In this document: piece after piece, positions 23,158 through 51,990 of the stretch | How positions within the stretch are numbered: the stretch's first letter is position 1 | How the letters are laid out: each line of letters opens with the position of its first letter | Source: Pirellulales bacterium | GTDB taxonomy: Bacteria; Planctomycetota; Planctomycetia; Pirellulales; JANQPP01 | Assembly: GCA_028289405.1 (NCBI GenBank) | Contig: JANQPP010000206.1 | Coordinates: 1,092 to 65,091, forward strand | Direction: 5' to 3' | Length of the DNA stretch: 64,000 nt | Notes under the pieces: generated by a model | Database searches by the model: none | Seen by the model: only the letters and a program-made list of their open reading frames with translations | What the model was told of the DNA's origin: nothing | Position numbers and translations under genes: made by a program

Positions 23158-24480
23158 TTATGCGCCCTTTTTTTGGTATTTTTCAAGTTCTGCGTGCAGA
23201 TTCGTCCAATGCCGTTTTAGCTGCTTGCGTATTGATTCACTTCTCATCATTTCCTGCGATCGCCGTCCATAACTGACGAAGTTTCGTCGACCGAGATGAC
23301 TAAATCGGCTATATAATTCGTGACGAAATATTTTTGTTGAACCACAGTTTCTGGCGGCTATCGCAGCCGAACGAACGCCGAATTTCATTCGTCGGTAGAA
23401 TCGCGCCAACGTTTGTGATCGGATTAACTTCCGTTCGCCATCAAAGGTAAAACCGAGGTATTGCAAAGGTTGATCAGACACAACAGTCCTAGATCCAGCC
23501 ACAGAAAAAACTGATCGCTCTCTCTTCTCTAAATTGGAATTTAGCAATAGTGCCTTCAGTTCCTTGTCAACTGCCTCAGACACTTGCGATTCGTACTCAC
23601 TTGGACAAATCCAGAGTATGTCATCGCTGTACCGTCGGTATACGCCACCCAACTGCGAAGCCAGATTTGCCATCGTGCGATCAAAGGGCAGCATATATGC
23701 ATTTGACAGCACTGCACTGATCGGAGACCCCTGAGGTATTCCAAAATGATTCGTATTCTGAGAAACAAGACCTTTCCCACGAACTCGAATTCGAAACTCA
23801 GCCGGTTCGCATATCCTACTCATTCTTTCAGTTGATGTGTTTGCTCGTAGTCCAAATTCAGAATAGACGGCGTCACGATCAACGAAGGCAAACTTGGTGA
23901 TTGATTTGTAAACCGCGAAATGGTCGGAGGGGAGTGAATTGACTCCCAGCAAACTACACCAGATCTGTTTCAAAAGACCGTGATCTAGCGTGTCAAAGAA
24001 TGCAGAAACATCGAATGCCAAAGCAGTACACGGTGCCCGTTGAACTGCGTCTCGAAAGGCATCGTTCGCAAAGTCGATATTGCATTTACCGATAGCTCGA
24101 TATGCAAGCACATTGCCGCTCAATTCCTCGTCGGAATAGATCCGTTCGAGTAAAGCAGCCAAGCAAAGCGAGTAACGTGCGTACACTTGAGAATCCAGGT
24201 GCGACGCGTAAGCGATAAGACGGTCTTTGGATTCAACCTTTCGCTCTTCTGGCCTATACCTTGGCGTGCTCTTAGTATATGTGATGAACGGAAAAAACGA
24301 GTGCCTCGCTACGTTGTCAGAGTTATCTAAAAAAGACTTGGCGAATTTGAAAGATACAGGTCTATCAAAATGGAGGTATCCCTTCGGTGAAAACCATCCA
24401 TCAATCTTGTGTTTTCGTTTGTCCATAATTTCGAAATAGCAATGCCGAGAGGGCCGGACCTGAGGCATCCATATGCCCAT
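23158..24480 (-). CDS. Standalone reverse transcriptase (Abi/UG-like or group-II-like; class undetermined), candidate defense-associated RT
   Basis: 440 aa (alternative ATG at 24426). RT motifs in order: motif 2 'RPEERKVESKDRLIAYASHLDSQVYA', motif A 'ALAFDVSAFFDTLDHGLL', motif B 'GIPQGSPISAVLSNAYMLPFD', motif C 'YRRYSDDILWI' (YxDD), motif 7 'LQYLGFTF', then a basic helical C-terminal extension of about 100 aa. No retron-type 'VTG' motif. Gene and flanks are visibly AT-richer than the surrounding DNA. Confidence 0.8.
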   Translation of the reverse strand: MGIWMPQVRPSRHCYFEIMDKRKHKIDGWFSPKGYLHFDRPVSFKFAKSFLDNSDNVARHSFFPFITYTKSTPRYRPEERKVESKDRLIAYASHLDSQVYARYSLCLAALLERIYSDEELSGNVLAYRAIGKCNIDFANDAFRDAVQRAPCTALAFDVSAFFDTLDHGLLKQIWCSLLGVNSLPSDHFAVYKSITKFAFVDRDAVYSEFGLRANTSTERMSRICEPAEFRIRVRGKGLVSQNTNHFGIPQGSPISAVLSNAYMLPFDRTMANLASQLGGVYRRYSDDILWICPSEYESQVSEAVDKELKALLLNSNLEKRERSVFSVAGSRTVVSDQPLQYLGFTFDGERKLIRSQTLARFYRRMKFGVRSAAIAARNCGSTKIFRHELYSRFSHLGRRNFVSYGRRSQEMMRSESIRKQLKRHWTNLHAELEKYQKKGA

Positions 24481-24883
24481 CTCGGCGCAAGCTTAACCTT
24501 CCGATGTAAACGTACATCACACGTCCTACATCGCCCTCAGTTGAAACAATACTCGCTATAATGGAGGTAGCTCATTGCATATCGTCGCCGGAGCAACATC
24601 ATGGCTAATTGCCATTACTGCCGTCTTCCGACTTGACATACTAAACAACCTGTCCCGATGGGCGAATCCCAACGGCAATAACCTAACTGTGCAATTATTG
24701 GGCCAAAGGATTGTTTTGCCAGAATGGCAGCTTCTCCGGGGTCGAGCTGGAGCAAATGCAAAAAATGACTGCCATTCTTGCGGGAATTGTCAGTCGTGAA
24801 GGAACCAACGCAATTGGTACGTTGCAAAGCAGCCACAGGTAACAATCCCGCTGTGGTGGAAAAACAGCATCCGACAGCGGGGC
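24481..24883 (-). ncRNA. Candidate structured non-coding RNA region upstream of the RT (strand and extent uncertain)
   Basis: About 400 nt with no convincing ORF, AT-richer than flanks. Imperfect 13-bp inverted repeat 24717-24729 'GCCAGAATGGCAG' / 24778-24790 'CTGCCATTCTTGC' enclosing a 48-nt loop. Shorter palindromes at 24505-24535. TATAAT-like hexamer at 24556-24561. Confidence 0.25.
24846..24880 (-). terminator. Hairpin immediately after stop of the 144-aa gene (terminator-like)
   Basis: 'CCCGCTGT' (24846-24853) pairs with 'ACAGCGGG' (24873-24880); 8-bp GC-rich stem with 19-nt loop. Begins 4 nt beyond the stop at 24884. Downstream minus-strand sequence 'GAUUGUUACCU' is only moderately U-rich. 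Confidence 0.3.
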
Positions 24884-25318
24884 TTATGCCGCGTCGGACA
24901 ATTCGCCTTCGGTGAGGCTCATCAGGTCGCGGGCGAGGAGCATCCAATCGACCGAATCGAGCGCGGCCCGCAGCATCTGGTGGGCGAACTTGGGGAGGGA
25001 ATCCGCGCCTTGTTCCCAGGAGAATTCCAGCACGTCCCGGGAACTGATCCACTGCCGCAGCGCGTCGGCCAGCAGATTGCGGGCCACGTCCCGAACTTTG
25101 TCCCGCTCGGCGCGGACCTGGCCCAGAGCGAGGATCGCGATCATGGCCTGGCGGGAGGCGGCCCGCGCCAAGGCTTGGGCATGCTGGCGGCGTTCCTTTG
25201 TCTCGGCGATGTATTTGGCCACCGCCTCCGTGGGAAGGGACATCAAGTCCCGCGCGGGGAAGATTTGCAGCGCGTCTTCGGGTGCTGAAGTCATGTCCCG
25301 CCTGCCGATACGGACCAA
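24884..25318 (-). CDS. Small alpha-helical hypothetical protein between giant ATPase and RT
   Basis: 144 aa (possible start at internal 'MTSAPEDAL'). Internal duplicated motif 'PARDLMSLPTEAV' near the N-terminus and 'LARDLMSLTEGEL' at the C-terminus. No known domain recognised. Confidence 0.45.
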   Translation of the reverse strand: MVRIGRRDMTSAPEDALQIFPARDLMSLPTEAVAKYIAETKERRQHAQALARAASRQAMIAILALGQVRAERDKVRDVARNLLADALRQWISSRDVLEFSWEQGADSLPKFAHQMLRAALDSVDWMLLARDLMSLTEGELSDAA

Positions 25319-25426: not shown

Positions 25427-28400
25427 TCAGCCGCCGTCCACCTCGTTCCGGTCCCGCGAACGGGCCAGCGAGGTTTCGAGTTCTTCGATCAATTGCTCGT
25501 ATTTTTGCGTACAGTCGGCCAGGGTTTGACGCAACTCGACCAGTTCGCGGGATTGCGTGTCTCCGGAGGCGAGCAACGGCGAAAGCCAACTTTCCATGAC
25601 CTGGAACTGCTGTTGCATGACCTGCAAAAAAGAACGCGGGATACGGCTCACGACCGTGACCTGCAGGGGCGCTCCGCCGTCCAGCGTGGGACTTGGCGAA
25701 GAATCCTGGATTTCCGCCGTGGTTTTCGCCTCGGAGCCGTAGCCCGGTTGGGCGGGGACGGTAACCTTGACGGGACGCGGAGGCTGCGTGAACCACTTCT
25801 CCAGGTTTTCCGTGAATTGCCCGCCCCATTCCGTAAGCGCCGTTTGCAAATGCCCCAAATGTTCAACCAGCGGGGTCACGACTTGCGAGGAAGCCTGGTC
25901 CTCGCGAGGGGTCAAGAACGAGGCGCCTTGCCGCACGGCTTCGCCGATCTGATCGAGCCCAGCACGAAAATCTTCGAGTTGCACCACGACTTGCCCCAAC
26001 CGATCGTCGCCGCCGGCCCCCTTCAATTTTTGCTGCCGCTGGAAGGTGGCCTTGATGGCCTCCCACCGCTGCGCCTCTTCCGGCGTGAGGTTGCCGAGCA
26101 GTTCATTGAGCTTGAGCAGGTTCGCCTCGGCATCGGAGGTGAGCGTTTGGGCATCGTTCTCGTAGTTGGAAAGGATCAGGGTCTCCAACTCCGCGTCGTT
26201 CATGATCGACACCACCCGTTCGGCGATGCGGTTCATGTTGCGGTAAGAACCTTGCAGTTTGAAAGGTGGTTCCGTGCGGTAAGCATCGGCCTGCGCGGCG
26301 GAGCGGATGTATTCCTGATTCACGGTGAGCACGACGTCCCGCACGCGGAGCAGTTTCCGCATCACGGAGACGAGCTCCTGCATTTCGTCGGCGGAGTAAT
26401 TGCCTTCCCATTCGAACCCGTCGGTTCCTCCCTGCTCCGCGACTTTTAGCAGCGTGTGAACATCCTGGGGATGGCGATGGGCAACTCGATTGAGCACGGT
26501 ATTCGAGGTGGCGCAGTTTTCGATGTAGCTCATCTCGAACACATCCGCCGAATCGCCGATGATATCTCCCAAGTTGTAGATATCGGCGCGGTTGGAAAGC
26601 ATGTCGGGGATCTGGAATTTCTCGCCGCTCTCCGTGTAGGGGTTGCCGGCCATGACCACCGCAACCTTCCGTCCCCGCAGGTCGTAAGTGCGGGGCTGGC
26701 CGTTCCATACGCCCTCGATCTTCCGCTGGGCATCGCAGAGGGAGATGAATTTCTGCAGGAATTCGGGATGGCAATGCTGGATGTCGTCCACGTAGATCAT
26801 GACGTTGTCCCCCATTTCCAGGGAGAGATTCAGCTTGCGAATCTCTTCCCGCGCGCCGGCGTTGGGGGCTTCCGCCGGATCGAGCGACATCACGCGATGG
26901 CCGATGGCGGGGCCGTTGATCTTCATGAAGGTCAGGCCCAGGCGGTTGGCGACGTATTCCATCAAGGTGGTTTTGCCGTAGCCCGGCGGGGAGACGAGCA
27001 GCAGCAATCCCATGCGGTCGGTCCGCTTTTGGTCGCCCGCCGCGCCGCACTGTTTGGCCAGGTTGTCGCCGATGAGCGGCAAATAGACTGTGTCGATGAG
27101 GCGGTTCCGCACGAACGAAGTCAGCACGCGGGGCTTGAATTCGTCGAGCCGCATCCCCTGGCGGTGCTCGGCGACCAGGTTCTTTTTCAGGGCGTGGAAT
27201 TCTTCGTAGCGGGGGACTTCCACTTCCGCGAAGTTTCGCAGCTTGGTGAAAAAAGTGTGGAAGTTCAGCCGATAGTTGCCGCCTTCGAGGACCGGATGCG
27301 TGCCCACCATGTCTTTGAGAACTCGCAGCGGTTCTCCTTCCAGCACGCGCTTGGGCGGCGTGGCAGTGAGCAGACGCAGGGCAACCTCCTCCACGTAGCC
27401 TTCACGTTCGGGATCGGCATGTTCCCGCACGAAAGCCCGTGCCGCGTCGCAAGCCAATTGGAACGCGCTCGCGGGATCTTTTTCCAAGGCGGTGAGTGCA
27501 TTCCGCCAGGTTTCTTCTTGGACTTGGTGATGCAGATGCTCTTGGAAGTTTCGCGCCAATTCCTCCGCCGCATGGCTGACGGCAAAATCGGGCGAACTGC
27601 TGATTTCGTCGTAGAGATATCGCGCGGCTGGTTCGAGGGAATCCGGGGAAAACAAGGGCCGCCGTTCCACGAACTCGGCGAGCCGGTCCTGAAGTTCATG
27701 GACGTAATTTGCTTTCGGCGTGGCGCGAGGAAACCACTGTTCCACGCGTCCTACCCCCTGCAAGCGAGCTGTGAGCAATTCCTTTTCCTGGGGTGGAAGG
27801 AAAAACCGCCAATACAACTGGGCCAGCGACCGGGCCGGAGCCGGGTAACGCAGCAGCCCCAAGTGCTCGTCGAGGTCCCACAAGGCACTCAAGATTCGGG
27901 CTGCGTCTTGGTCGGTGACGCCCTTGACATACCCTTCGGTGTAGCGGGGGGCCATGAATTCGCGAACCCAATCCAGCCGGGCTGGTTCGCTGGTCCGCAA
28001 TTCCTGCCGGCGTTTGAGAGGAATGTCCTCTGGCGACCGTTGCCACAAGAGATACGCCAAGTATTCACCGCGGTAGACGTGTTCGTTCTCGGAGATCGTT
28101 TCCCGGTTCCACAGGTCTTGGGCTTCGGTCAGCCCGGGATCGTCCAATGGCTCGAAAAAGTTCGTGCCGGTGAGGTGCAGGAGCATGTCGCCTTCACGGA
28201 CGACGGTCGTGAGATCTAGCGGCTGCGTGTTGACATGGAAGCGGTGCCGCCCGAATTGCAGCACGTTTTCGCCCTCAACAAACAATTCCTGTTTGTCGCG
28301 CAATTGCCGCAGGGCATCTTCCTGCACGGTCTTGAGCCGGCTTTGAATCTCGTCCAGCTTGACGGTATCGCCGAGGGATTCGAGTTGCCCGCAGATGTCG

Positions 28401-30820
28401 CGGACCTTATCCACCATTAGATCGGCGGCGAAATAGGCGTTGATTTCCTGGACCGTTTCCAGCGAACCGACCCGAGTTTGAATGCCCTTCAAGATGCGGT
28501 CCGCGGCACTGGCCAGCGCGGCAGCGCGTTTGTTGCGGGCTTCGACCAGCTCAACTTTGCGGGCTTCGAAGATGGAGTAAATCTCGTCCCGCTTCTCGGA
28601 AAGCTGGACGACGAACTCATCGAACTCCGCGAAACGGCCCTCCAATTCCTCGATCTGCACCATGAGCTTGGTGAGAAATTCGTCGCACTTTTCCGGAGTG
28701 CGGCACAAATCGAGATAATTGGTGACGCCCTGGTCCAAGAGCCGGAGTTGAGAACTGAACTCCGCCGCCGCCTCCACGGACATCAATTCTTTGGCCCGTT
28801 TTTTTAGCGCTGCCCGGGCCTGATTGATGCGGGTGAAGATCTGCGAAATGGCATCGACGATGGCGGTGCGCTGCGTGGTGTCGTCGATTTTGAGGTTGCT
28901 CACCACGTCGATGAGCATCTCGAGTTCCGCCGCCGTTTGCTTGATTTCCTCTTCGAGTTCCTTGGCCTGCGCGACCTTCGCCACCTCGGCGATTCGCGCA
29001 TGCTGGCCGGTTACTTTTTGTTGGTATGGCTCCAACGCCGCCGGCTTGAGCAGGAATTCCACGCAGCGGCGGGCCAGACGTTCGGACTGCTCGGAGACCT
29101 CCTGTTCCAGCTTTTCGACCAATGGTAGGTCCACGTACCGCAATTCGCGGAGCCCGATGATCCCGCCGCGCAGCAGCCGTAGCTCGCCCAGGGAGGCCAC
29201 ATAATCTTGAATCGTTTCGAACCGCCGGCGATTGACCGTGGCGAGCGTCTCTCGCGTCTTCTCCTGAATGGAACGGGTTTGCTCGGCGGTTTGCCGTTGG
29301 GCTCGGCGGACCTTTTCGTATTCCTCGACCGCCGACGCGGCGGTTTCCCGGATCTGCTTCAAGATTTCGCCAGGCCGAAAGGCCTCTTCGGCATCGATCC
29401 AGAAGTAGGAATCGACGACTTCCGTGGCGATTTTCTCAATGTCCAGGTAGAGGCTCGCGTACGCCTCTTCCCGGCCAATCAGGGCCAAGATCTCATGGCA
29501 TTCGGCCATGCCCCGCACGATGTCGCGGTTTCCCACCTTGTAGAGATACGATTCGGCGTGCGCGGCGGGGACATGCGTATCGCTGGTGAAGGGCGTTTGC
29601 CAGACTTGCAAGGGATGATGCCGTTGGGGTTCTTCATGTGTGCGGAAGCAGAGCAGTTCCCCTTCTTGGAAAATCGTGAAACCGTGGCATATCAGCGGGG
29701 TTTCCACGGCCTGTTCGATGCAATTGTATTGCAACAGGACATATACGCCCTTCAAGCGGTGGTGGAACACAAACAGCGTGTCCTCGCCGTTGGACGCGGT
29801 AACCCGCCGCGCGAAGAGCATGTCCGCCGCGGAGTGGTCGAATGTTTTGAACTCTCCGCTTTGCAAATAGTAGCCGCCGGGAAAGATCAGCCCCTGGTCA
29901 TCCGGCAAGAGCACGCAAGAGGTGGCCAATTCGTCCAGACGGACCACGGATTGCAGTTTTTCGTTGTAAACGAAGTAGCGGTAATCGGGCTCTTGATAAG
30001 GCCGAATTTTCAGCAGAATCAGATGGCCCAGGATGGCATAAAATATCTCCGCGTCATCGAGCGTCTGGTCGGCATTGTCGACCGGTTCGTCGTGGATCCC
30101 CTCGCCGGAATCCGTGTTGTTCTCCACTTTGATGGTCAGGTCACCGCCGATGGTTTCCACGAACAGGCGGTCGGCGATGGAGACATGCGGATGCTTGCCG
30201 AAGAAATGCTCGTCCCGCGTGGTCCGCGTCCATTCAAATTCATGCTGTGGCGGATAACGGACCTCGTGATCGCTGCGGTTGTCGATGTACTGAAGGCCGG
30301 TGTCCGTGAACAGCCACTTGAACGCTTTGATGTCACTAATCTCGCGTCCGGTACGAAACACCATGTAGAGGTGCGGCCCGGAGAGAAAGAACTGCGAGAA
30401 CGTGGCATCCTTGTAATAGCGGTAAATCTCCTCGAAGTCACGCTGGAACTGGGCATCCTCAAGCAGCGTGAGCGGCTGTTCATGGAACGTGCCGTCACGG
30501 AATTCGTGTACGGCGAACACATCCTCTGGCCGCCGCTCCGTTTTCAGGCCGAATTGGACGTTGAATCCGAACAGAAAGAAACGTCCCACGGCCACGATGT
30601 CCCGGGGCACGCAATTGTGTTCCGTGGTGACCCGTTCCGTGGCAAGCAGCTTGGTCTCGATCGAGCCGAAGACCTTTTTTCGCTCCTCGTTGAGCTGCCC
30701 CAGCCGCTGGCGCAGTTCGCCCGCCTGGGTCGAAAGCCGCTGGCTAATGATTTCATAGGTGCCGCTTTCCAGCTCGATGTCCGAACCCTGCGACGTGGCG
30801 GAGGCGGTATCGGCGGCCAT
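25427..30820 (-). CDS. Giant (1797 aa) protein with a single AAA_5/MoxR-type AAA+ ATPase domain and long coiled-coil regions; function unknown
   Basis: Walker A 'LLLLVSPPGYGKTTLMEYV', Walker B 'NVMIYVDDIQ', sensor-1/Arg region 'VAVVMAGNPYTESGEKFQIPDMLSNRADI' (MoxR/dynein-like) at about aa 1180-1400. Extensive heptad-like helical segments at about aa 480-900. Long antisense ORFs on the + strand are considered GC artefacts. Confidence 0.8.
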   Translation of the reverse strand: MAADTASATSQGSDIELESGTYEIISQRLSTQAGELRQRLGQLNEERKKVFGSIETKLLATERVTTEHNCVPRDIVAVGRFFLFGFNVQFGLKTERRPEDVFAVHEFRDGTFHEQPLTLLEDAQFQRDFEEIYRYYKDATFSQFFLSGPHLYMVFRTGREISDIKAFKWLFTDTGLQYIDNRSDHEVRYPPQHEFEWTRTTRDEHFFGKHPHVSIADRLFVETIGGDLTIKVENNTDSGEGIHDEPVDNADQTLDDAEIFYAILGHLILLKIRPYQEPDYRYFVYNEKLQSVVRLDELATSCVLLPDDQGLIFPGGYYLQSGEFKTFDHSAADMLFARRVTASNGEDTLFVFHHRLKGVYVLLQYNCIEQAVETPLICHGFTIFQEGELLCFRTHEEPQRHHPLQVWQTPFTSDTHVPAAHAESYLYKVGNRDIVRGMAECHEILALIGREEAYASLYLDIEKIATEVVDSYFWIDAEEAFRPGEILKQIRETAASAVEEYEKVRRAQRQTAEQTRSIQEKTRETLATVNRRRFETIQDYVASLGELRLLRGGIIGLRELRYVDLPLVEKLEQEVSEQSERLARRCVEFLLKPAALEPYQQKVTGQHARIAEVAKVAQAKELEEEIKQTAAELEMLIDVVSNLKIDDTTQRTAIVDAISQIFTRINQARAALKKRAKELMSVEAAAEFSSQLRLLDQGVTNYLDLCRTPEKCDEFLTKLMVQIEELEGRFAEFDEFVVQLSEKRDEIYSIFEARKVELVEARNKRAAALASAADRILKGIQTRVGSLETVQEINAYFAADLMVDKVRDICGQLESLGDTVKLDEIQSRLKTVQEDALRQLRDKQELFVEGENVLQFGRHRFHVNTQPLDLTTVVREGDMLLHLTGTNFFEPLDDPGLTEAQDLWNRETISENEHVYRGEYLAYLLWQRSPEDIPLKRRQELRTSEPARLDWVREFMAPRYTEGYVKGVTDQDAARILSALWDLDEHLGLLRYPAPARSLAQLYWRFFLPPQEKELLTARLQGVGRVEQWFPRATPKANYVHELQDRLAEFVERRPLFSPDSLEPAARYLYDEISSSPDFAVSHAAEELARNFQEHLHHQVQEETWRNALTALEKDPASAFQLACDAARAFVREHADPEREGYVEEVALRLLTATPPKRVLEGEPLRVLKDMVGTHPVLEGGNYRLNFHTFFTKLRNFAEVEVPRYEEFHALKKNLVAEHRQGMRLDEFKPRVLTSFVRNRLIDTVYLPLIGDNLAKQCGAAGDQKRTDRMGLLLLVSPPGYGKTTLMEYVANRLGLTFMKINGPAIGHRVMSLDPAEAPNAGAREEIRKLNLSLEMGDNVMIYVDDIQHCHPEFLQKFISLCDAQRKIEGVWNGQPRTYDLRGRKVAVVMAGNPYTESGEKFQIPDMLSNRADIYNLGDIIGDSADVFEMSYIENCATSNTVLNRVAHRHPQDVHTLLKVAEQGGTDGFEWEGNYSADEMQELVSVMRKLLRVRDVVLTVNQEYIRSAAQADAYRTEPPFKLQGSYRNMNRIAERVVSIMNDAELETLILSNYENDAQTLTSDAEANLLKLNELLGNLTPEEAQRWEAIKATFQRQQKLKGAGGDDRLGQVVVQLEDFRAGLDQIGEAVRQGASFLTPREDQASSQVVTPLVEHLGHLQTALTEWGGQFTENLEKWFTQPPRPVKVTVPAQPGYGSEAKTTAEIQDSSPSPTLDGGAPLQVTVVSRIPRSFLQVMQQQFQVMESWLSPLLASGDTQSRELVELRQTLADCTQKYEQLIEELETSLARSRDRNEVDGG

Positions 30821-30986: not shown

Positions 30987-33014
30987 TCAACTGGTGGACC
31001 GCTTGCGTGCCGAGTTGCCTCCTCGGCCTGGTTTCCGCAGCAAACTGTCCGCCCGCTGTTCGGAGATGCCGGAATCGCTGGCCAGGCCCAACAGTCGTTG
31101 CAGGTCGAAACGGCTTTCCTGCGTCGAGGCCAGGGAAAGCATCTTGCCGATCAAGGCCGCGATGGAGAGGTCCTTCACGTCGTCGGTGCTGAGGTGGAAT
31201 TCTTCCACGAGCTGCTTCAGCTTGTCCCGGAAGTAGTTGGGATCTCCGTTGAAGAAGGTGTTTTTCACATCGGACAAGACCTGGCTGTTGTTCACGAAGC
31301 GGTCCACGGACTTGCCCGCCTTGATCGAATCGATGATGCGGTCGAAAAATTCGGTCTCGCCGCCGACGATATCGATGCGGGCCGACTTGAGGGCCGAACC
31401 GACGATTTCCGCCTGCTCCTCGGCGATGCGGTATTGGGCATCGATGGCGGCCAGTTCGATATCCTTCTCCTTGTTCAAGCGGAGCTTGAATTCCTCGTGG
31501 TCTCGGCCCACGCCATCGAAGAGTTTCATGGCGTTGGCCTTGTCCTCGATGCCGGTGGCTTCGGAGTTGTACTTCAGCTTCATGACTTCGGCTTCCGCCG
31601 TGCCATGTTTTTCCAGCGCGGTCGCCTTGGCCTCGGTGACTTGGGCCTCGGCCAGGCCCACGGCAGCCTCGTCGGCCGTTTTGGCTTCGGCCAACATCTT
31701 GCGGGCTTGGGTATCCTTTTCCGCCGCGACCCGGCTGGCTTCCGCTTCGACCACTTTTTGTTCCGCGTAAAGTTCCGCGGCCTGTTTGGAGGCTTCGGCC
31801 TGTTTGACGTCCTTGACGAGAGATTCCTGGGCCTGCATCTCCGCCTTGGTCACGGTGACCTGTTTGAGACGGTCGGCGCCGGCGAATTCTTGTGTGTCCT
31901 TGATGCGTTCTTGCTCTTCCACGACGGAGCGTTCCACCACGACGCGCTCGCGGATGACTTCCTGGATGTTCCGCTGCTCGACTTCGACCGCCTTATCCTT
32001 ATCGATCACGGCCAGCTCGACTACGCGTTCCCGCTCGGTGGCTTCCAATTGCCGGTCTTTCTCCACTCGCTCGGTTTCCACCGCGTCGGTCCGTTCCTTG
32101 TTTTTGCGGGCAACGATAATCTGCCGCTCCTTGTTTTCTTCACCGACGAAGATCTGCTCGTCGGAGGCGATGCGGGCCTGCTCCGCGCGGAGCCGCTGCT
32201 CTTCTTGAATCTTTTTGGTTTCCGCATCTTCCCTCGCGGCGATCACGGCGACCTCGCGTTTCTGCTTTTCTTGCGCCTCCACCCGCTGCCGTTCCAATTC
32301 CAAGATCGCTTCGGCGGCCTCGACATCCTGCTTCTTGATCGTCTTTTCCTTTTCCCGCGTGATGCCGTTGGCGAGCACGAATTCGCGGGCGGTCAGGTCA
32401 GTGATCTTTTTGATGCCTTCGGCATCGAGGATGTTTTGTGGGTTGAGGTTTTCGACGGTGGTCTGTTCCAAGTAATCGATCGCGCAGTCATCCAGGACAT
32501 AGCCATTGAGGTCCGTGCCGATGACTTTCAGGATTTCCGCCTTGAAGCTGTCCCGCTCGTTGTACAGCTCCACGAAGTCGAAGTGCCGCCCGACGGTCTT
32601 CAAACCTTCGGAAAATTTGGCGTCGAAAAGCTCGATCAGCGCCTGCTGCTCGGAAGCCCGCTGGCAACCCAAGGATTGGGCAACCTGCAGGATATCGCCA
32701 CGCGTATTATTCACGCGGACGAAGAAAGCGACCTCGATATCCGCGCGGATGTTGTCTTTACAGATCAAACCAGCAACTCCACGCCGGGCGATTTCGATCC
32801 TTTTGACGGAGATATCCATCCGTTCCGCGCGGTGAGCGATGGGGATCACCCAGATCCCGGAACCGGTGGCCACGCTGAGCCCGCCCACGCCGGAACGCAC
32901 GATTGCCTCTTCCGGGCCGACCTTGCGATAGAAGCGGGAAAAACCGACTCCCAGGCCGACCAAGAATAAGGCCAGCACGAAGATAATCGATAGAACAGTC
33001 AATATTTCATTCAT
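30987..33014 (-). CDS. Flotillin / SPFH (band-7) domain protein, YqiK-like, with long E/A/K/R-rich coiled coil
   Basis: 675 aa; N-terminal TM 'ILTVLSIIFVLALFLVGLGV'; SPFH region 'IPIAHRAERMDISVKRIEIARRGVAGLICKDNIRADIEVAFFVRV...'; about 350 aa of charged coiled coil. Confidence 0.85.
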   Translation of the reverse strand: MNEILTVLSIIFVLALFLVGLGVGFSRFYRKVGPEEAIVRSGVGGLSVATGSGIWVIPIAHRAERMDISVKRIEIARRGVAGLICKDNIRADIEVAFFVRVNNTRGDILQVAQSLGCQRASEQQALIELFDAKFSEGLKTVGRHFDFVELYNERDSFKAEILKVIGTDLNGYVLDDCAIDYLEQTTVENLNPQNILDAEGIKKITDLTAREFVLANGITREKEKTIKKQDVEAAEAILELERQRVEAQEKQKREVAVIAAREDAETKKIQEEQRLRAEQARIASDEQIFVGEENKERQIIVARKNKERTDAVETERVEKDRQLEATERERVVELAVIDKDKAVEVEQRNIQEVIRERVVVERSVVEEQERIKDTQEFAGADRLKQVTVTKAEMQAQESLVKDVKQAEASKQAAELYAEQKVVEAEASRVAAEKDTQARKMLAEAKTADEAAVGLAEAQVTEAKATALEKHGTAEAEVMKLKYNSEATGIEDKANAMKLFDGVGRDHEEFKLRLNKEKDIELAAIDAQYRIAEEQAEIVGSALKSARIDIVGGETEFFDRIIDSIKAGKSVDRFVNNSQVLSDVKNTFFNGDPNYFRDKLKQLVEEFHLSTDDVKDLSIAALIGKMLSLASTQESRFDLQRLLGLASDSGISEQRADSLLRKPGRGGNSARKRSTS

Positions 33015-33631
33015 GATGGTTCCTCGGTTTCGGCGGGTTGGATCCAGAAGATATGGGCTTGGGGATCATGGTCCACGAGGGTAGCCAAGTCCCCTTTGTG
33101 CATGGTGCCAGTGGTGGTGCGGACTTGCAGCCGCAACGGCGCTCCGTCGGAAGCGACTTCCACTTGTCCGGACGATTCATCCGCTTGGAGCGAAACGACG
33201 GTGCAAGACCTACCCAGCAGATCCCGCACGCGATTGGGTTCGATGGGATCAAATTTCCCCGACAGCGGATTCGTGACGAGCTTCGCCACAATCACCGCCA
33301 GCCCGCCGTTGCGGAGCATGATGGCGGCCAATGAAGCGTAATCCGTGGCGGGGATTTCGCTCCGCCACAGCATGGAAATACCCCAGTAGGCTAGGGAAAA
33401 CACACTCAGCCAGAGCATGAATGGCACGCGGCCAATATTCAAAAACTTCAGCACGACGAAGCCCGCGCCCATCACGCCATGTGCCTCGGCGTCGAAGTCG
33501 ACTTCGACATCCAGAAAATCGAGATCGAAGGCGCCCAGGATGATCAATAGCCAATAGGCGCAGATCAACATCAGAAGGATTGTCGCAGGGAACGCAGGCC
33601 CCGAGAGCGCGGTCTGAATAAACTCTGTCAT
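33011..33631 (-). CDS. NfeD/YqiJ-like membrane protein (flotillin-associated, OB-fold C-terminus)
   Basis: Start refined to 'MTEFIQTALSGPAFPATILLMLICAYWLLIILG'. TM helices plus C-terminal beta-rich 'VVSLQADESSGQVEVASDGAPLRLQVRT'. 4-nt overlap with flotillin start. Confidence 0.6.
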   Translation of the reverse strand: MTEFIQTALSGPAFPATILLMLICAYWLLIILGAFDLDFLDVEVDFDAEAHGVMGAGFVVLKFLNIGRVPFMLWLSVFSLAYWGISMLWRSEIPATDYASLAAIMLRNGGLAVIVAKLVTNPLSGKFDPIEPNRVRDLLGRSCTVVSLQADESSGQVEVASDGAPLRLQVRTTTGTMHKGDLATLVDHDPQAHIFWIQPAETEEPS

Positions 33632-33969
33632 GACATCATCCCTGGATTCGCCAACGATGCCCCAACGGCGCGCGGGTCCCGTCCATGGCGGCAACCGGAA
33701 CAACCCGTATGATCGGGACGGTCCGGCGGCACGCGTGGGGCTTCCACAATATATGTCACAAAACCCTCGGAGGAATCATCTCCCGATGATTCGCCTGAAT
33801 CACGCCAGCAGCGTGAGGCGCGGACCGGTACCTTCGGCCCATGCTATCCCCTAAGGGCGAAACAGCAGGGCATTTGGGGCGCGGCTTCCACCAAATTTCC
33901 CGATTTTTTCGATGGACCAGGATGCGGCTGCGACAGGAAGGCCCTCGTTGCCACTCGTCGGAGGGGAAG

Positions 33970-36153
33970 TTATTCAGGCGTCGTGATTTTTCGTTGAAAG
34001 AATTCCCGGGCTGCCGGGTGCATTCCGGGCCCAACCCAGTGCGAGGCCTCGACGAAGGAGACGAATTCCGGAGCAAAGGGCTCGTGCGGAGTCTCGAAGA
34101 AGCCTTCCAATAGGAGCCGCACCATCTTCGGCGAGGCGTTGGGACGAGTCGCCAAAAAAGCCGCCGTGGAAACGGTGGAAATCCCCGTGTCGGGGATATC
34201 GTCGCATTCTGGATAGACGTCGGCGGGAATCGTAAAGACTTTGAACGCCAAATGTTGCCGGTGGAGGATTTCCACTTCTTCGCGGCTAAATGGAACGAGG
34301 CGATACTCTCCGCTTGCGAGCAGTCCATGCAGGGCCGAATTATGTAGCCCCGTGGTCACAATCGCTCCATCAAGATCTGGATAAACCTTCAACTTGAGGA
34401 AACTAACGCCGGGGGTCCGCAAGTCCGGCAAACGTTTGCGAAAGTGTTGCACGATCAGTTCCGCGCTGGTCCGCATGCCGGAATCCGGCTCCCCAATGGC
34501 CAACGACACCTTGCCGAGGTCGGCGAAGGAGCTTCCTGGCGTATTTCGACGAACGACGACATGTACTGCCTCTTGATAGAGAGGCGATATCCACATTTGC
34601 CCACTGGGAAACATCGTCGTTCCCTGCAGGATCGCGACATCGACTTCGCCTTGACCGAGGAGACGCAAATTGGCGGCAGAGCCGGGCGAAGCCACCACGG
34701 ACATGCCATGCCCCATCGTCTCTTCAAAATGCGTCCGCATGCGGTGGCCCACGTCATGGTACATGCCATCCTCGATCCCCGTGGCCAGACGGATCGGATC
34801 GGGAACATGATCCGCGCGTGGCCACCACTGCCACGCCACCAGGGCGACGGCCACGATCACCACCGCGACGAGCGTGATCCGCTGTGCACGATGATGATGC
34901 GGCGTGGCCACCGCGACGGGCCGCCCCAACAGAGCCGCCACCAATGGCACGTCCCGCAGCCAATTCCAAGTCCGCTCCGCGAACCCGGCTGGACGAGCTT
35001 CGATCGGCCGGTCTTCTAGGAATCGTGTCAGATCATCGGCAACGGCGGCAGCGGATGCATACCGTTCTCGTGGTTCGCTCCGCATGCATTTGAGGCAAAT
35101 GGTTTCCAAATCTCCCTGTACTTCCGGCCGCCATTGGCTGGGAGGGACCGGCTCCTGATGCACGACCTGGAGCAGCGTATCCACGGCGGTTTCCGAAAGA
35201 AACGGAGGCCGGCCCGTGAGGGCGTAGTACATCACGGCTCCCAAGGCATAGACATCCGTGGCGGAGCCGACCTCCTCGGTGCATCCCGCCGCCTGCTCGG
35301 GCGACATGTAACTGGGCGTGCCCACGATTTCGCCGGTGCGCGTTAGTCCCGGTTCGTCTTCGACGCGCTTGGCCAGGCCGAAATCCGTGATATGCGGCAC
35401 ATCCTCCGACGTCAGCAAAACGTTGGAGGGTTTCAAGTCCCGGTGCAGGATGCCGTGTTCATGAGCGAATTGCACCGCCTCGGCCACGGATTTCATGAGC
35501 TGGGCCACTGTCGTCAGCGGCATCTGGCCGTCCGCCGCCCGTTCACGGAGCGTGATGCCCTCGATATAGGGCATCGAATAGTAATGTTGGCCCTCGAGTT
35601 GGTCCGCTTCGTGGATGCCCACGATATGCGGATGCCGCAACCTTCCCGCGACTTGGACTTCGTGATGGAATCTCCGCACGTCCGCTTCGGAGGCGAGCCG
35701 GCCAGACAAGATCATTTTGACCGCCACGATGCGGTCCATGGGCCGTTGCCGCGCCTTGTAGACAACCCCCATGCCGCCACGTCCTACTTCCTCCAGCAGT
35801 TCATATTGGCCGAATTGTCGCTGGGCGAATTCGGGCTGGAATGTGTCCGCCCGGTTGTCTCTTGTCGACGGTTCTCCTCCGAGGCAAATGGTCTCCTCCA
35901 GCCCCGAAACCTGCTCCTCGGAGACGACACGTGCCGTGTCGCTGGGCGGTTCGTCGGCAATCGGCCCGGCCATGCCGTCCACCATTTCGGCGGTACGCAG
36001 CAGCTCTCGCAATGTATCCGCCAGGTCCTCATGCTCGCGGAGCCACTGCTCCCGGTCGAGGCGCTCCCCTTCATCCCGACGACGCAAGTACTCCGCCCAG
36101 GCCGCGTCTAGACGTTGTTCCTCGTCATCGGGCGAGTGTTCAGTTTCATTCAT
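33970..36153 (-). CDS. Ser/Thr protein kinase with C-terminal periplasmic solute-binding-protein-like (TAXI/phosphonate SBP-like) domain
   Basis: Start refined to 'MNETEHSPDDEEQRL' (directly after sigma-factor stop). Kinase motifs 'VGRGGMGVVYKARQ', 'AVKMI', 'HRDLKPSNVLL', 'DFGLAKR', 'GTPSYMSPE'. TM segment, then SBP-like region of about 300 aa. Confidence 0.75.
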   Translation of the reverse strand: MNETEHSPDDEEQRLDAAWAEYLRRRDEGERLDREQWLREHEDLADTLRELLRTAEMVDGMAGPIADEPPSDTARVVSEEQVSGLEETICLGGEPSTRDNRADTFQPEFAQRQFGQYELLEEVGRGGMGVVYKARQRPMDRIVAVKMILSGRLASEADVRRFHHEVQVAGRLRHPHIVGIHEADQLEGQHYYSMPYIEGITLRERAADGQMPLTTVAQLMKSVAEAVQFAHEHGILHRDLKPSNVLLTSEDVPHITDFGLAKRVEDEPGLTRTGEIVGTPSYMSPEQAAGCTEEVGSATDVYALGAVMYYALTGRPPFLSETAVDTLLQVVHQEPVPPSQWRPEVQGDLETICLKCMRSEPRERYASAAAVADDLTRFLEDRPIEARPAGFAERTWNWLRDVPLVAALLGRPVAVATPHHHRAQRITLVAVVIVAVALVAWQWWPRADHVPDPIRLATGIEDGMYHDVGHRMRTHFEETMGHGMSVVASPGSAANLRLLGQGEVDVAILQGTTMFPSGQMWISPLYQEAVHVVVRRNTPGSSFADLGKVSLAIGEPDSGMRTSAELIVQHFRKRLPDLRTPGVSFLKLKVYPDLDGAIVTTGLHNSALHGLLASGEYRLVPFSREEVEILHRQHLAFKVFTIPADVYPECDDIPDTGISTVSTAAFLATRPNASPKMVRLLLEGFFETPHEPFAPEFVSFVEASHWVGPGMHPAAREFFQRKITTPE

Positions 36154-36773
36154 GGCACGACCGTCCGTGAGGAACAGGCGAACTTGTCCCGCAGGCCACG
36201 CAACCCTCGTTTGAGCAGTCCCGCCACGGCGACCTCCGAGCGTTCGAAGTGTGCCGCCAATTGTGCCAGCGTCCAGCCCTCCAAATGCCGCAAGCGGACC
36301 GCTTCGGACTGATCGGCTGGCAATTGGTCGATCGCCTGGGCCAGCCGGATGGCCGCTTCGCCCCGCATGAGCCGTCGGCTGGGAGAGGACGTTTCCGCTG
36401 GCGGTTCCCACGAGGGAGCCTCTTCCGATCGATCGACCGCCTCCCGCCGTACTTCCTGGTCCACGCTGCGTTTCGCGGCGCGAATGTGCGCGCGAAACGC
36501 TTCCAGAATATTGTGGTCCAAGATGGTGTGCAGCCACGTGACGAATTCGCCGGGCTGTTGGCCCGAGAATTTCGCCAGATCCCGGTGGGCTTCCAAATAC
36601 GTCTGCTGGACGATGTCGGAAGCTTCCACGCGAGCCTGCAAACGGCTTCCCAACTTTCGCCGCGCGTGGATGCGAAAATAGGCGCGGAACGATTCCAACA
36701 GCCGGCCAAGGGCTTCCTCGTCACCCTCGCGGGCCCGCTCCAAGAGCAGTTGATGATCGGAAAAATCGCTCAC
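36150..36773 (-). CDS. ECF-type RNA polymerase sigma-70 factor
   Basis: Region 2 'DIVQQTYLEAHRDLAKF', region 4 'VRLRHLEGWTLAQLAAHFERSEVAVAGLLKRGLRGLR'. Track ORF extends to 36926; likely GTG start near 36773 (approximate). Confidence 0.7.
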   Translation of the reverse strand: MSDFSDHQLLLERAREGDEEALGRLLESFRAYFRIHARRKLGSRLQARVEASDIVQQTYLEAHRDLAKFSGQQPGEFVTWLHTILDHNILEAFRAHIRAAKRSVDQEVRREAVDRSEEAPSWEPPAETSSPSRRLMRGEAAIRLAQAIDQLPADQSEAVRLRHLEGWTLAQLAAHFERSEVAVAGLLKRGLRGLRDKFACSSRTVVP

Positions 36774-51917: not shown

Positions 51918-51990
51918 GCCCCCTTAGCTCAACTGGCAGAGCATCTGACTCTTAATCAGAGGGTTGAAGGTTCGAGTCCTTCAGGGGGCA
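51918..51990 (+). tRNA. tRNA-Lys (anticodon CTT)
   Basis: 73-nt cloverleaf: acceptor GCCCCCT/AGGGGGC, D-arm GCTC..GAGC, anticodon stem TCTGA/TCAGA with loop CTCTTAA (anticodon CTT), T-arm GAAGG TTCGAGT CCTTC, discriminator A. CCA not encoded. Confidence 0.8.

Follow-up and report, generated by a model that had tools for sequence, protein, structure and literature searches.

A DUF3686-DUF7902-AAA+ ATPase encoded with a flotillin and an NfeD-like protein in a Pirellulales bacterium: a candidate remodeler of flotillin-NfeD scaffolds

The locus and its operon

The stretch of DNA considered here, 64,000 nucleotides (nt) of contig JANQPP010000206.1 from the Pirellulales bacterium assembly GCA_028289405.1 (positions 1,092 to 65,091, hereafter the window, in whose coordinates all positions are given), encodes a 1797-amino acid (aa) AAA+ ATPase, named 'DNA repair ATPase' by NCBI, together with a flotillin and a small NfeD-like membrane protein. 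An earlier note made from the letters alone had described an uninterrupted 5.4-kb open reading frame (ORF) lying between a flotillin/NfeD gene pair and a reverse transcriptase (RT) gene. The ORF was confirmed at 25427..30820 on the minus strand, running uninterrupted from ATG to stop, and identification of the neighboring genes confirmed its position. The gene calls of a 27.8-kb contig from run SRR20820731 include an identical 1797-aa protein, and the GC content of the gene (0.58–0.60) is similar to that of the remainder of the window. Genes for an NfeD2/YqiJ-like protein and a YqiK-type flotillin precede the ATPase gene, which comes third in a conserved operon; the stop codon of the NfeD-like gene overlaps the flotillin start (ATGA), the flotillin and ATPase genes are separated by 166 nt, and all three lie on the same strand.

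The first operon gene (33011..33631, minus strand) encodes the NfeD2/YqiJ-like protein of 206 aa, beginning with the ATG at 33631, with a longer form from a TTG at 33703 also possible. Hydropathy analysis shows N-terminal hydrophobic helices, comprising two to three transmembrane (TM)-like segments, followed by a C-terminal soluble domain. The protein matches Pfam YqiJ_N with 24.8 bits (cutoff 23), the NfeD C-terminal domain is matched by one of six members of the NfeD-like family, and alignment with E. coli YqiJ using hhalign was weak (E=6.7e-5, probability 64%). The NfeD-like profile had no match in the PDB.

The second operon gene (30987..33014, minus strand) encodes a 675-aa flotillin of the SPFH2/YqiK type, consisting of an anchor, an SPFH domain, and a long, charged coiled-coil/flotillin region. 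Pfam searches with this protein returned no match even at E=10 and the NCBIfam FloT match was weak (E=2.7e-4); Pfam Band_7 was matched by one of ten homologs (E=9.3e-11), and a profile search of the PDB gave only a marginal match to the QmcA coiled coil. A profile of ten homologs aligned with E. coli YqiK over 398 columns (hhalign 99.95%, E=1.4e-37), spanning the anchor, the SPFH domain and the coiled coil, and homologs in Streptomyces and Pseudomonas are named 'flotillin family protein' and 'SPFH domain-containing protein' by PGAP. Profile alignment thus identifies the product of the upstream gene as a genuine homolog of flotillins. Hydropathy places a single N-terminal membrane anchor at aa 1–29, and the SPFH and coiled-coil parts are predicted to be cytoplasmic because positive charges follow the TM segment.

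A consensus scan for promoters and terminators gave counts at or under shuffle expectation and was set aside. Just upstream of the operon lies a gene on the same strand (33970..36537) for a Ser/Thr protein kinase fused to a C-terminal NMT1_3/TAXI-type solute-binding domain, and on the source contig this fusion gene is preceded, again on the same strand, by a gene for an extracytoplasmic function (ECF) sigma factor.

Domain architecture of the ATPase

The region of about 1150 aa preceding the AAA+ core had been described as unknown domains with long heptad-like helical stretches. Two Pfam families cover parts of it: PF12458 (DUF3686) matches aa 35–473 (29402..30718; this and all further ATPase features are on the minus strand) over profile positions 1–448 of 448 (E=8.3e-193), and PF25472 (DUF7902) matches aa 595–678 (28787..29038; E=1.6e-28), inside the helical region. 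Structures were modeled with AlphaFold2 (AF2) for two segments, aa 1–500 and aa 850–1650, from an alignment of 100 homologs. The N-terminal model (mean predicted local distance difference test score, pLDDT, 87.4; predicted template modeling score, pTM, 0.86) has a helix at aa 20–51, an all-beta part at aa 57–408 and helices thereafter. The all-beta part is modeled as a beta-propeller with pLDDT of about 90. Foldseek comparison of this model with the PDB returned only beta-propellers (the Elp1 WD40 domain, CyRPA, prolyl oligopeptidase and PON1/paraoxonase), with 8–10% identity and low TM-scores, and the model is that of a generic propeller without an informative relative.

Beyond the propeller, aa ~425–850 (28271..29548) are a long helical region, probably a coiled coil. 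The AF2 model shows helices at aa 425–499; for aa 500–849 the coiled-coil character is judged from composition, because the models cover aa 1–500 and 850–1650. In 56-aa windows across the helical region proline plus glycine make up 0–7% and E/K/R/Q 29–41% of residues, and a long coiled coil has been described in this type of ATPase (PMC11237479), in agreement with the composition seen here. The second model (aa 850–1650; pLDDT 88.0, pTM 0.76) begins with a middle region, aa 853–1223 (27152..28264), that comprises a small beta domain (aa 853–892), an all-helical part (aa ~915–1150), a small beta element (aa 1158–1186) and a long helix that connects to the ATPase core. Residues conserved among homologs in this region include F861, V863, N864, Q866 and T884-G885-T886. 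The heptad-like description holds, then, for aa ~425–850 but not for the propeller at aa 57–408 or for the beta and helical domains of aa 853–1223.

The AAA+ core is followed by a lid and a conserved C-terminal helical domain, aa 1421–1635 (25916..26560), recognized from conservation and AF2 helices. Within this domain the invariant block RTEPPFKLQGSYRNMN contains R1527, a candidate sensor-2 arginine by motif resemblance. The protein ends in a lineage-variable tail, aa 1636–1797 (25430..25915), whose last modeled residues have low pLDDT. In the homolog alignment (columns 1640–1857) this tail of about 160 aa is present in Planctomycetota and some others, and absent from Bacteroidota and Streptomyces homologs; it contains a low-complexity stretch and a terminal helix (ITVV.K.PRS...QF..M..W..PLL) that is conserved in Planctomycetota. 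Hydropathy analysis found no TM-like segment in the ATPase, which is a soluble, cytoplasmic protein.

The AAA+ module

A single AAA+ alpha/beta core occupies aa ~1263–1420 (26561..27034), in the C-terminal third of the protein as previously noted, and its nucleotide-binding motifs are intact. All three motifs quoted earlier were located exactly in the translated ORF: the Walker A sequence SPPGYGKTT at aa 1277–1285 (26966..26992); IYVDDIQ at aa 1342–1348, within the Walker B sequence MIYVDDIQH at aa 1341–1349 (26774..26800); and the block VVMAGNPYTESGEKFQIPDMLSNRADI at aa 1388–1414 (26579..26659), which carries the sensor-1 residue N1393 and the candidate arginine finger R1411. In seven homologs drawn from five phyla, all three motifs show little or no variation. 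AF2 places a beta-hairpin at aa 1367–1380 (26681..26722), between Walker B and sensor 1. The Walker B motif has the form hhhhDD (D1345 and D1346), invariant across five phyla. AAA+ Walker B motifs usually end in DE, the hhhhDD form being more usual in STAND-type switch NTPases.

Assignment of the module to a particular AAA+ clade was approached with several profile and structure comparisons. Pfam AAA (PF00004) gave 29.7 bits over 38 of 131 profile positions, AAA_5 gave 25.3 bits (cutoff 22) over 126 profile positions, and RuvB_N gave 24 bits, under its cutoff of 27; all three are weak P-loop matches and lie at aa 1263–1398. NCBIfam and PADLOC searches gave no specific match, with NCBIfam RuvB scoring 23.9 against a cutoff of 282. 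In Foldseek searches with the AAA+ model, RuvB, Lon, ClpA, NorQ, CbbQ and MCM were all matched at E of about 1e-5, so that the clades were not separable. The hhalign alignment to E. coli RuvB had 94% probability but was confined to 72 columns that span Walker A and Walker B, while that to E. coli RavA was insignificant (5.5% probability, E=0.007), and a sequence search of the PDB gave only P-loop matches of about 40 residues, around Walker A, to VCP/Cdc48. The core conforms to the MoxR/dynein/midasin structural type; in the AF2 model, aa 1303–1320 form a conserved loop with a short helix rather than a helix-2 beta-hairpin.

The earlier description of a lone MoxR/AAA_5-type module stands at the level of the fold. 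Membership in the MoxR family itself was rejected, given the insignificant RavA profile comparison, the entirely different architecture and the lack of a VWA partner gene: no VWA-domain protein was found near the ATPase in the neighboring ORFs scanned, in Pfam matches for called genes of the source contig and of the Symmachiella locus, or in annotated loci. The classical AAA clade (Cdc48/FtsH/Vps4) was likewise rejected, on the partial PF00004 match and the modeled hairpin before sensor 1, which is not a feature of that clade.

Family size and distribution

The earlier note considered proteins of this kind rare, a claim that did not survive the searches. A word-indexed search yielded 5,509 homolog clusters at 90% identity among 8,000 candidates scored. 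Scanning GTDB, with one genome per species, for the two family signatures YGKT(T/P)LME and (I/L)Y(V/L)DDIQH returned at least 600 stretches, with at least 594 species confirmed to carry both. A phmmer search with aa 1–500 against 1.84 billion representatives gave 776 clusters at 50% identity, 268 of them at E<=1e-30. The window protein has the features of this family: an N-terminal DUF3686, a DUF7902, a single C-terminal AAA+ module with both signatures, and a length within about 1600–1900 aa. Full-length members range from 1600 to 1930 aa, with DUF3686 always N-terminal, and many are named 'DNA repair ATPase' by NCBI. The nearest homologs, with 55–59% identity over the full length, are from Planctomycetota (Symmachiella, Gimesia and Pirellulales). 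Searching plasmids with tblastn identified 13 full-length homologs with 39–53% identity, in hosts including Hymenobacter, Streptomyces, Nonomuraea, Deinococcus, Pseudomonas, Proteus, Vibrio, Photobacterium and Halomonas, while the same kind of search of 50,697 phage records found none. The ATPase family is thus widespread and slowly evolving.

Conservation of the gene neighborhood

Linkage was surveyed with five hidden Markov models (HMMs; flotillin-like, NfeD-like, PspA, CesT/Tir and RT) against the six-frame ORFs of 86 loci, the genome loci among them being the best-scoring 80 of at least 594. Of the genome loci, 61 extend 4.5 kb or more upstream of the ATPase gene. In 58 of these a flotillin gene (HMM E<1e-20) lies directly upstream of the ATPase gene, on the same strand, and in 55 the flotillin gene is itself immediately preceded by an NfeD-like gene. 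Among the 19 loci with short upstream sequence, the 3' part of the flotillin gene is visible in 11. The linked loci come from Planctomycetota, Bacteroidota, Verrucomicrobiota, Desulfobacterota, Kiritimatiellota, Omnitrophota and Clostridia. Each of the four plasmid loci with annotation (Hymenobacter, Pseudomonas pQBR103, Streptomyces and Deinococcus) also contains the trio, as does the Symmachiella chromosome. A longer version, with CesT/Tir and PspA genes further upstream, was found in 16 of the 58 flotillin-linked loci, mostly from Bacteroidota, and a long version with PspA in the Hymenobacter and pQBR103 plasmid loci.

This linkage strongly supports the membrane-remodeling alternative that the earlier note had drawn from the flotillin/NfeD pair. 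The note had also reasoned that orthologs scattered through unrelated contexts would make the adjacency coincidental; such scatter is what is seen with respect to the RT gene, but not with respect to flotillin and NfeD.

In several loci from Bacteroidota and Desulfobacterota, unrelated small genes totaling 0.6–1.6 kb lie between the flotillin and ATPase genes (for example L026, 5662..6186; L037, 8085..9383; L019; and L033). By eye these inserted ORFs resemble transposases, nucleotidyltransferase toxins and lipoproteins. The operon seems to tolerate insertions at this junction, and the idea that the inserted genes represent a fourth conserved component was rejected, as they differ from locus to locus.

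Comparison with known systems

The operon has been described previously by comparative genomics, framed within PspA biology (Ravi et al., 2024, mSystems; PMC11237479). Its components in that study are CesT/Tir-PspA, a flotillin-domain protein, a 3TM YqiJ/YuaF protein and an AAA+ ATPase, and 'abbreviated operons' without PspA were reported to be widely distributed (PMC11237479). The operon in the window is such an abbreviated version, made up of flotillin, YqiJ/YuaF-type and AAA+ genes: the flotillin neighbor has the TM, band-7/SPFH, coiled-coil and flotillin parts and the other neighbor is a multi-TM YqiJ/YuaF (NfeD2) protein, while the CesT/Tir-PspA dyad of the full-length operon is absent. 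The domain architecture and partners are the same as those published; the window differs in lacking CesT/Tir-PspA and in having the Planctomycetota tail of about 160 aa. The existence and gene context of the ATPase family are thus already in the literature, in one comparative-genomics paper, and the protein studied here is a further member of a catalogued, computationally described family. The earlier characterization of such proteins as uncharacterized is correct for experiments, none having been found in the literature on this ATPase family, but not for computational work. No papers were found on DUF3686, PF12458 or a 'DNA repair ATPase' in connection with flotillin, and two papers on SPFH proteins (PMC13086221, PMC2636767) make no mention of the ATPase.

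Several known systems offer points of comparison. Relative to the MoxR chaperones CbbQ, NorQ and RavA, the window ATPase is six times larger, adds a propeller and a coiled coil, and has a DD Walker B, no VWA partner gene and, in the model, no helix-2 hairpin. MoxR ATPases are partner-specific remodelers, and HflK/C forms an SPFH cage that encloses the AAA+ machine FtsH. The HflK/C-FtsH and Vps4-ESCRT-III systems share with the operon a common logic, in which an oligomeric membrane scaffold is served by its own AAA+ machine, a likeness extended by the frequent presence in the operon of a gene for PspA, itself of the ESCRT-III superfamily. In contrast to FtsH and Vps4, the window ATPase has no protease domain and no membrane anchor, and belongs to another AAA+ clade, and its putative scaffold faces the cytoplasm rather than the periplasm, so the analogy is functional only. 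In S. aureus, FloA-NfeD stabilizes unfolded proteins in membrane microdomains as a holdase that needs no ATP (PMC11222466). The same flotillin and NfeD gene pair is found there without an ATPase gene, which the window operon adds. To our knowledge, none of the studied flotillin systems (FloA/FloT, YqiK) has an energy-consuming partner.

Proposed function

From its conserved place in the operon, the ATPase is quite likely a functional partner of flotillin-NfeD. Our preferred reading, which we consider somewhat better than evenly supported, is that it is an ATP-driven remodeler of the flotillin-NfeD scaffold. The ATPase would assemble into a ring through its single MoxR/dynein-like AAA+ module, while the N-terminal propeller and the long helical arm would dock onto the flotillin-NfeD oligomer. 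ATP hydrolysis could then remodel the scaffold, through its assembly, opening or disassembly, or through the loading or extraction of membrane proteins that it holds. The ATPase would in this way bring energy to a scaffold that otherwise works without ATP. The system may form part of a membrane-stress and maintenance machinery, a role that would account for the CesT/Tir chaperone and PspA genes in a quarter of loci. Such a mechanism is reasonable because FtsH works in SPFH cages, FloA-NfeD is an ATP-independent holdase and MoxR ATPases remodel specific partners. That remodeling is the specific action on flotillin-NfeD we put at slightly under an even chance.

Several observations weigh against this reading. 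Gene linkage by itself speaks neither to physical interaction nor to which partner would be acted upon, and the linkage sample, being the best-scoring loci, covers the nearer members of the family. Three of the 61 loci (L029, L032 and L042) have no flotillin gene, and no PspA or CesT HMM match at E<=1e-3 was found in the 64-kb window. Identities of the flotillins and ATPases correlate only moderately (Pearson 0.56, Spearman 0.29), a correlation confounded by shared ancestry. The DD Walker B could mean slow, switch-like hydrolysis rather than the action of a processive motor, and substrate threading is not indicated by the model, because neither a helix-2 beta-hairpin nor an aromatic pore loop is evident in it.

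The identity correlation, being so confounded by shared ancestry, was not used as evidence of co-evolution. In the three loci without a flotillin gene, neither flotillin nor NfeD was found within 6–10 kb upstream; these contexts look rearranged, and an ORF in L032 resembles a DNA methyltransferase by eye.

A bolder form of the remodeling proposal, which we put forward tentatively and think somewhat less likely true than false, is that this family is the long-missing energy source of flotillin scaffolds. As a ring ATPase devoted to flotillin-NfeD cages, it would open, disassemble or load them, working in a slow, switch-like manner through its hhhhDD motif, in the role that Vps4 has for ESCRT-III or FtsH in HflK/C. 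If this were true, a single point mutant lacking ATPase activity, in any of hundreds of species, would allow the function of 'lipid-raft' flotillins to be dissected. The role of bacterial flotillins is still debated. The ATPase family offers a concrete and genetically tractable handle on this question, since it is conserved (39–59% identity over the full length) and lies beside flotillin in about 95% of the sampled loci whose upstream sequence is long enough, in at least ten phyla or classes.

Alternative functions

Among the alternatives, the one that ranks highest, although it is unlikely, has PspA/ESCRT-III-like polymers as the main target of the ATPase, which would be a bacterial counterpart of Vps4, with flotillin serving only as a membrane platform. 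In keeping with this, the trio is immediately preceded by CesT/Tir and PspA genes in 16 of the 58 linked loci and at two plasmid loci, and the operon has been framed within PspA biology (PMC11237479). A review reports that bacterial PspA has no known Vps4-like ATPase (PMC7619361). However, a PspA gene is missing from the neighborhood in about three quarters of the loci, the window included, while 95% of loci have flotillin; the core is closer to MoxR/dynein modules than to the classical Vps4 clade, and no MIT-like domain was detected.

A second and improbable alternative is that the flotillin-NfeD-ATPase trio is a membrane-acting anti-phage or abortive-infection system. The presence of homologs on large plasmids (pQBR103, Streptomyces and Deinococcus), the mobile or toxin-like ORFs seen by eye inside the operon in L037 and L026, and the DRT2 defense gene that adjoins the operon in the window would all fit such a role. 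On the other hand, PADLOC gave no convincing match, the best (E=0.004) being to the P-loop only, and the absence of homologs from the phage records was noted above. An identity of 39–59% over 1600 aa across phyla is also unlike that of fast-evolving defense genes, and the genes flanking the operon are mostly ordinary metabolic ones.

A role in DNA repair, as the database name would have it, is very improbable. In its favor are the NCBI product name and the Pfam description of PF12458 (DUF3686) as 'ATPase involved in DNA repair', and the weak RuvB_N score and the hhalign match to RuvB lean in the same direction. Yet the RuvB_N score is under cutoff and the similarity is confined to the Walker A to Walker B stretch, Pfam found no DNA-binding or nuclease domain, and no conserved repair genes, including ruvA and ruvC, are found nearby, the conserved partners being membrane proteins. 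The literature search likewise found no paper mentioning DUF3686 or PF12458, and the name 'DNA repair ATPase' is without support.

The downstream reverse transcriptase

The RT gene (23158..24480, minus strand) lies 946 nt downstream of the ATPase gene on the same strand and encodes a 440-aa protein identified as DRT2 by NCBIfam NF041746 (505.7 bits, cutoff 390) and by PADLOC (E=1.5e-151). An RT and an adjacent non-coding RNA (ncRNA) together make up the self-contained DRT2 system (PMC12039810). The alternative offered by the earlier note, that the ATPase is the NTPase component of a defense system with this RT, drew on adjacency in the window and is refuted for practical purposes, given that the RT HMM had no match in any of the 85 other loci, that DRT2 is complete with its RT and ncRNA, and that a 136-aa ORF and about 400 nt of non-coding DNA separate the two genes. 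None of the trio has a convincing PADLOC match, the best for the ATPase being mad8 (E=0.0038, P-loop only), with no match for the flotillin or the NfeD-like protein. The DRT2 RT is an unrelated, autonomous defense gene.

The helical-looking 136-aa ORF (24884..25294, minus strand) separates the DRT2 region from the ATPase gene; it is among the called genes of the source contig and had no significant match in Pfam or PADLOC. Directly upstream of the DRT2 gene, on the same strand, is an AT-richer non-coding stretch of about 400 nt (24481..24883) that folds somewhat better than shuffled sequences (z=-2.5). It is a natural candidate for the template ncRNA of DRT2 in a Planctomycete-like genome. Rfam gave no match between the ATPase and RT genes; its only match at the gathering threshold in the window is a single tRNA gene at 51918..51990 on the plus strand.

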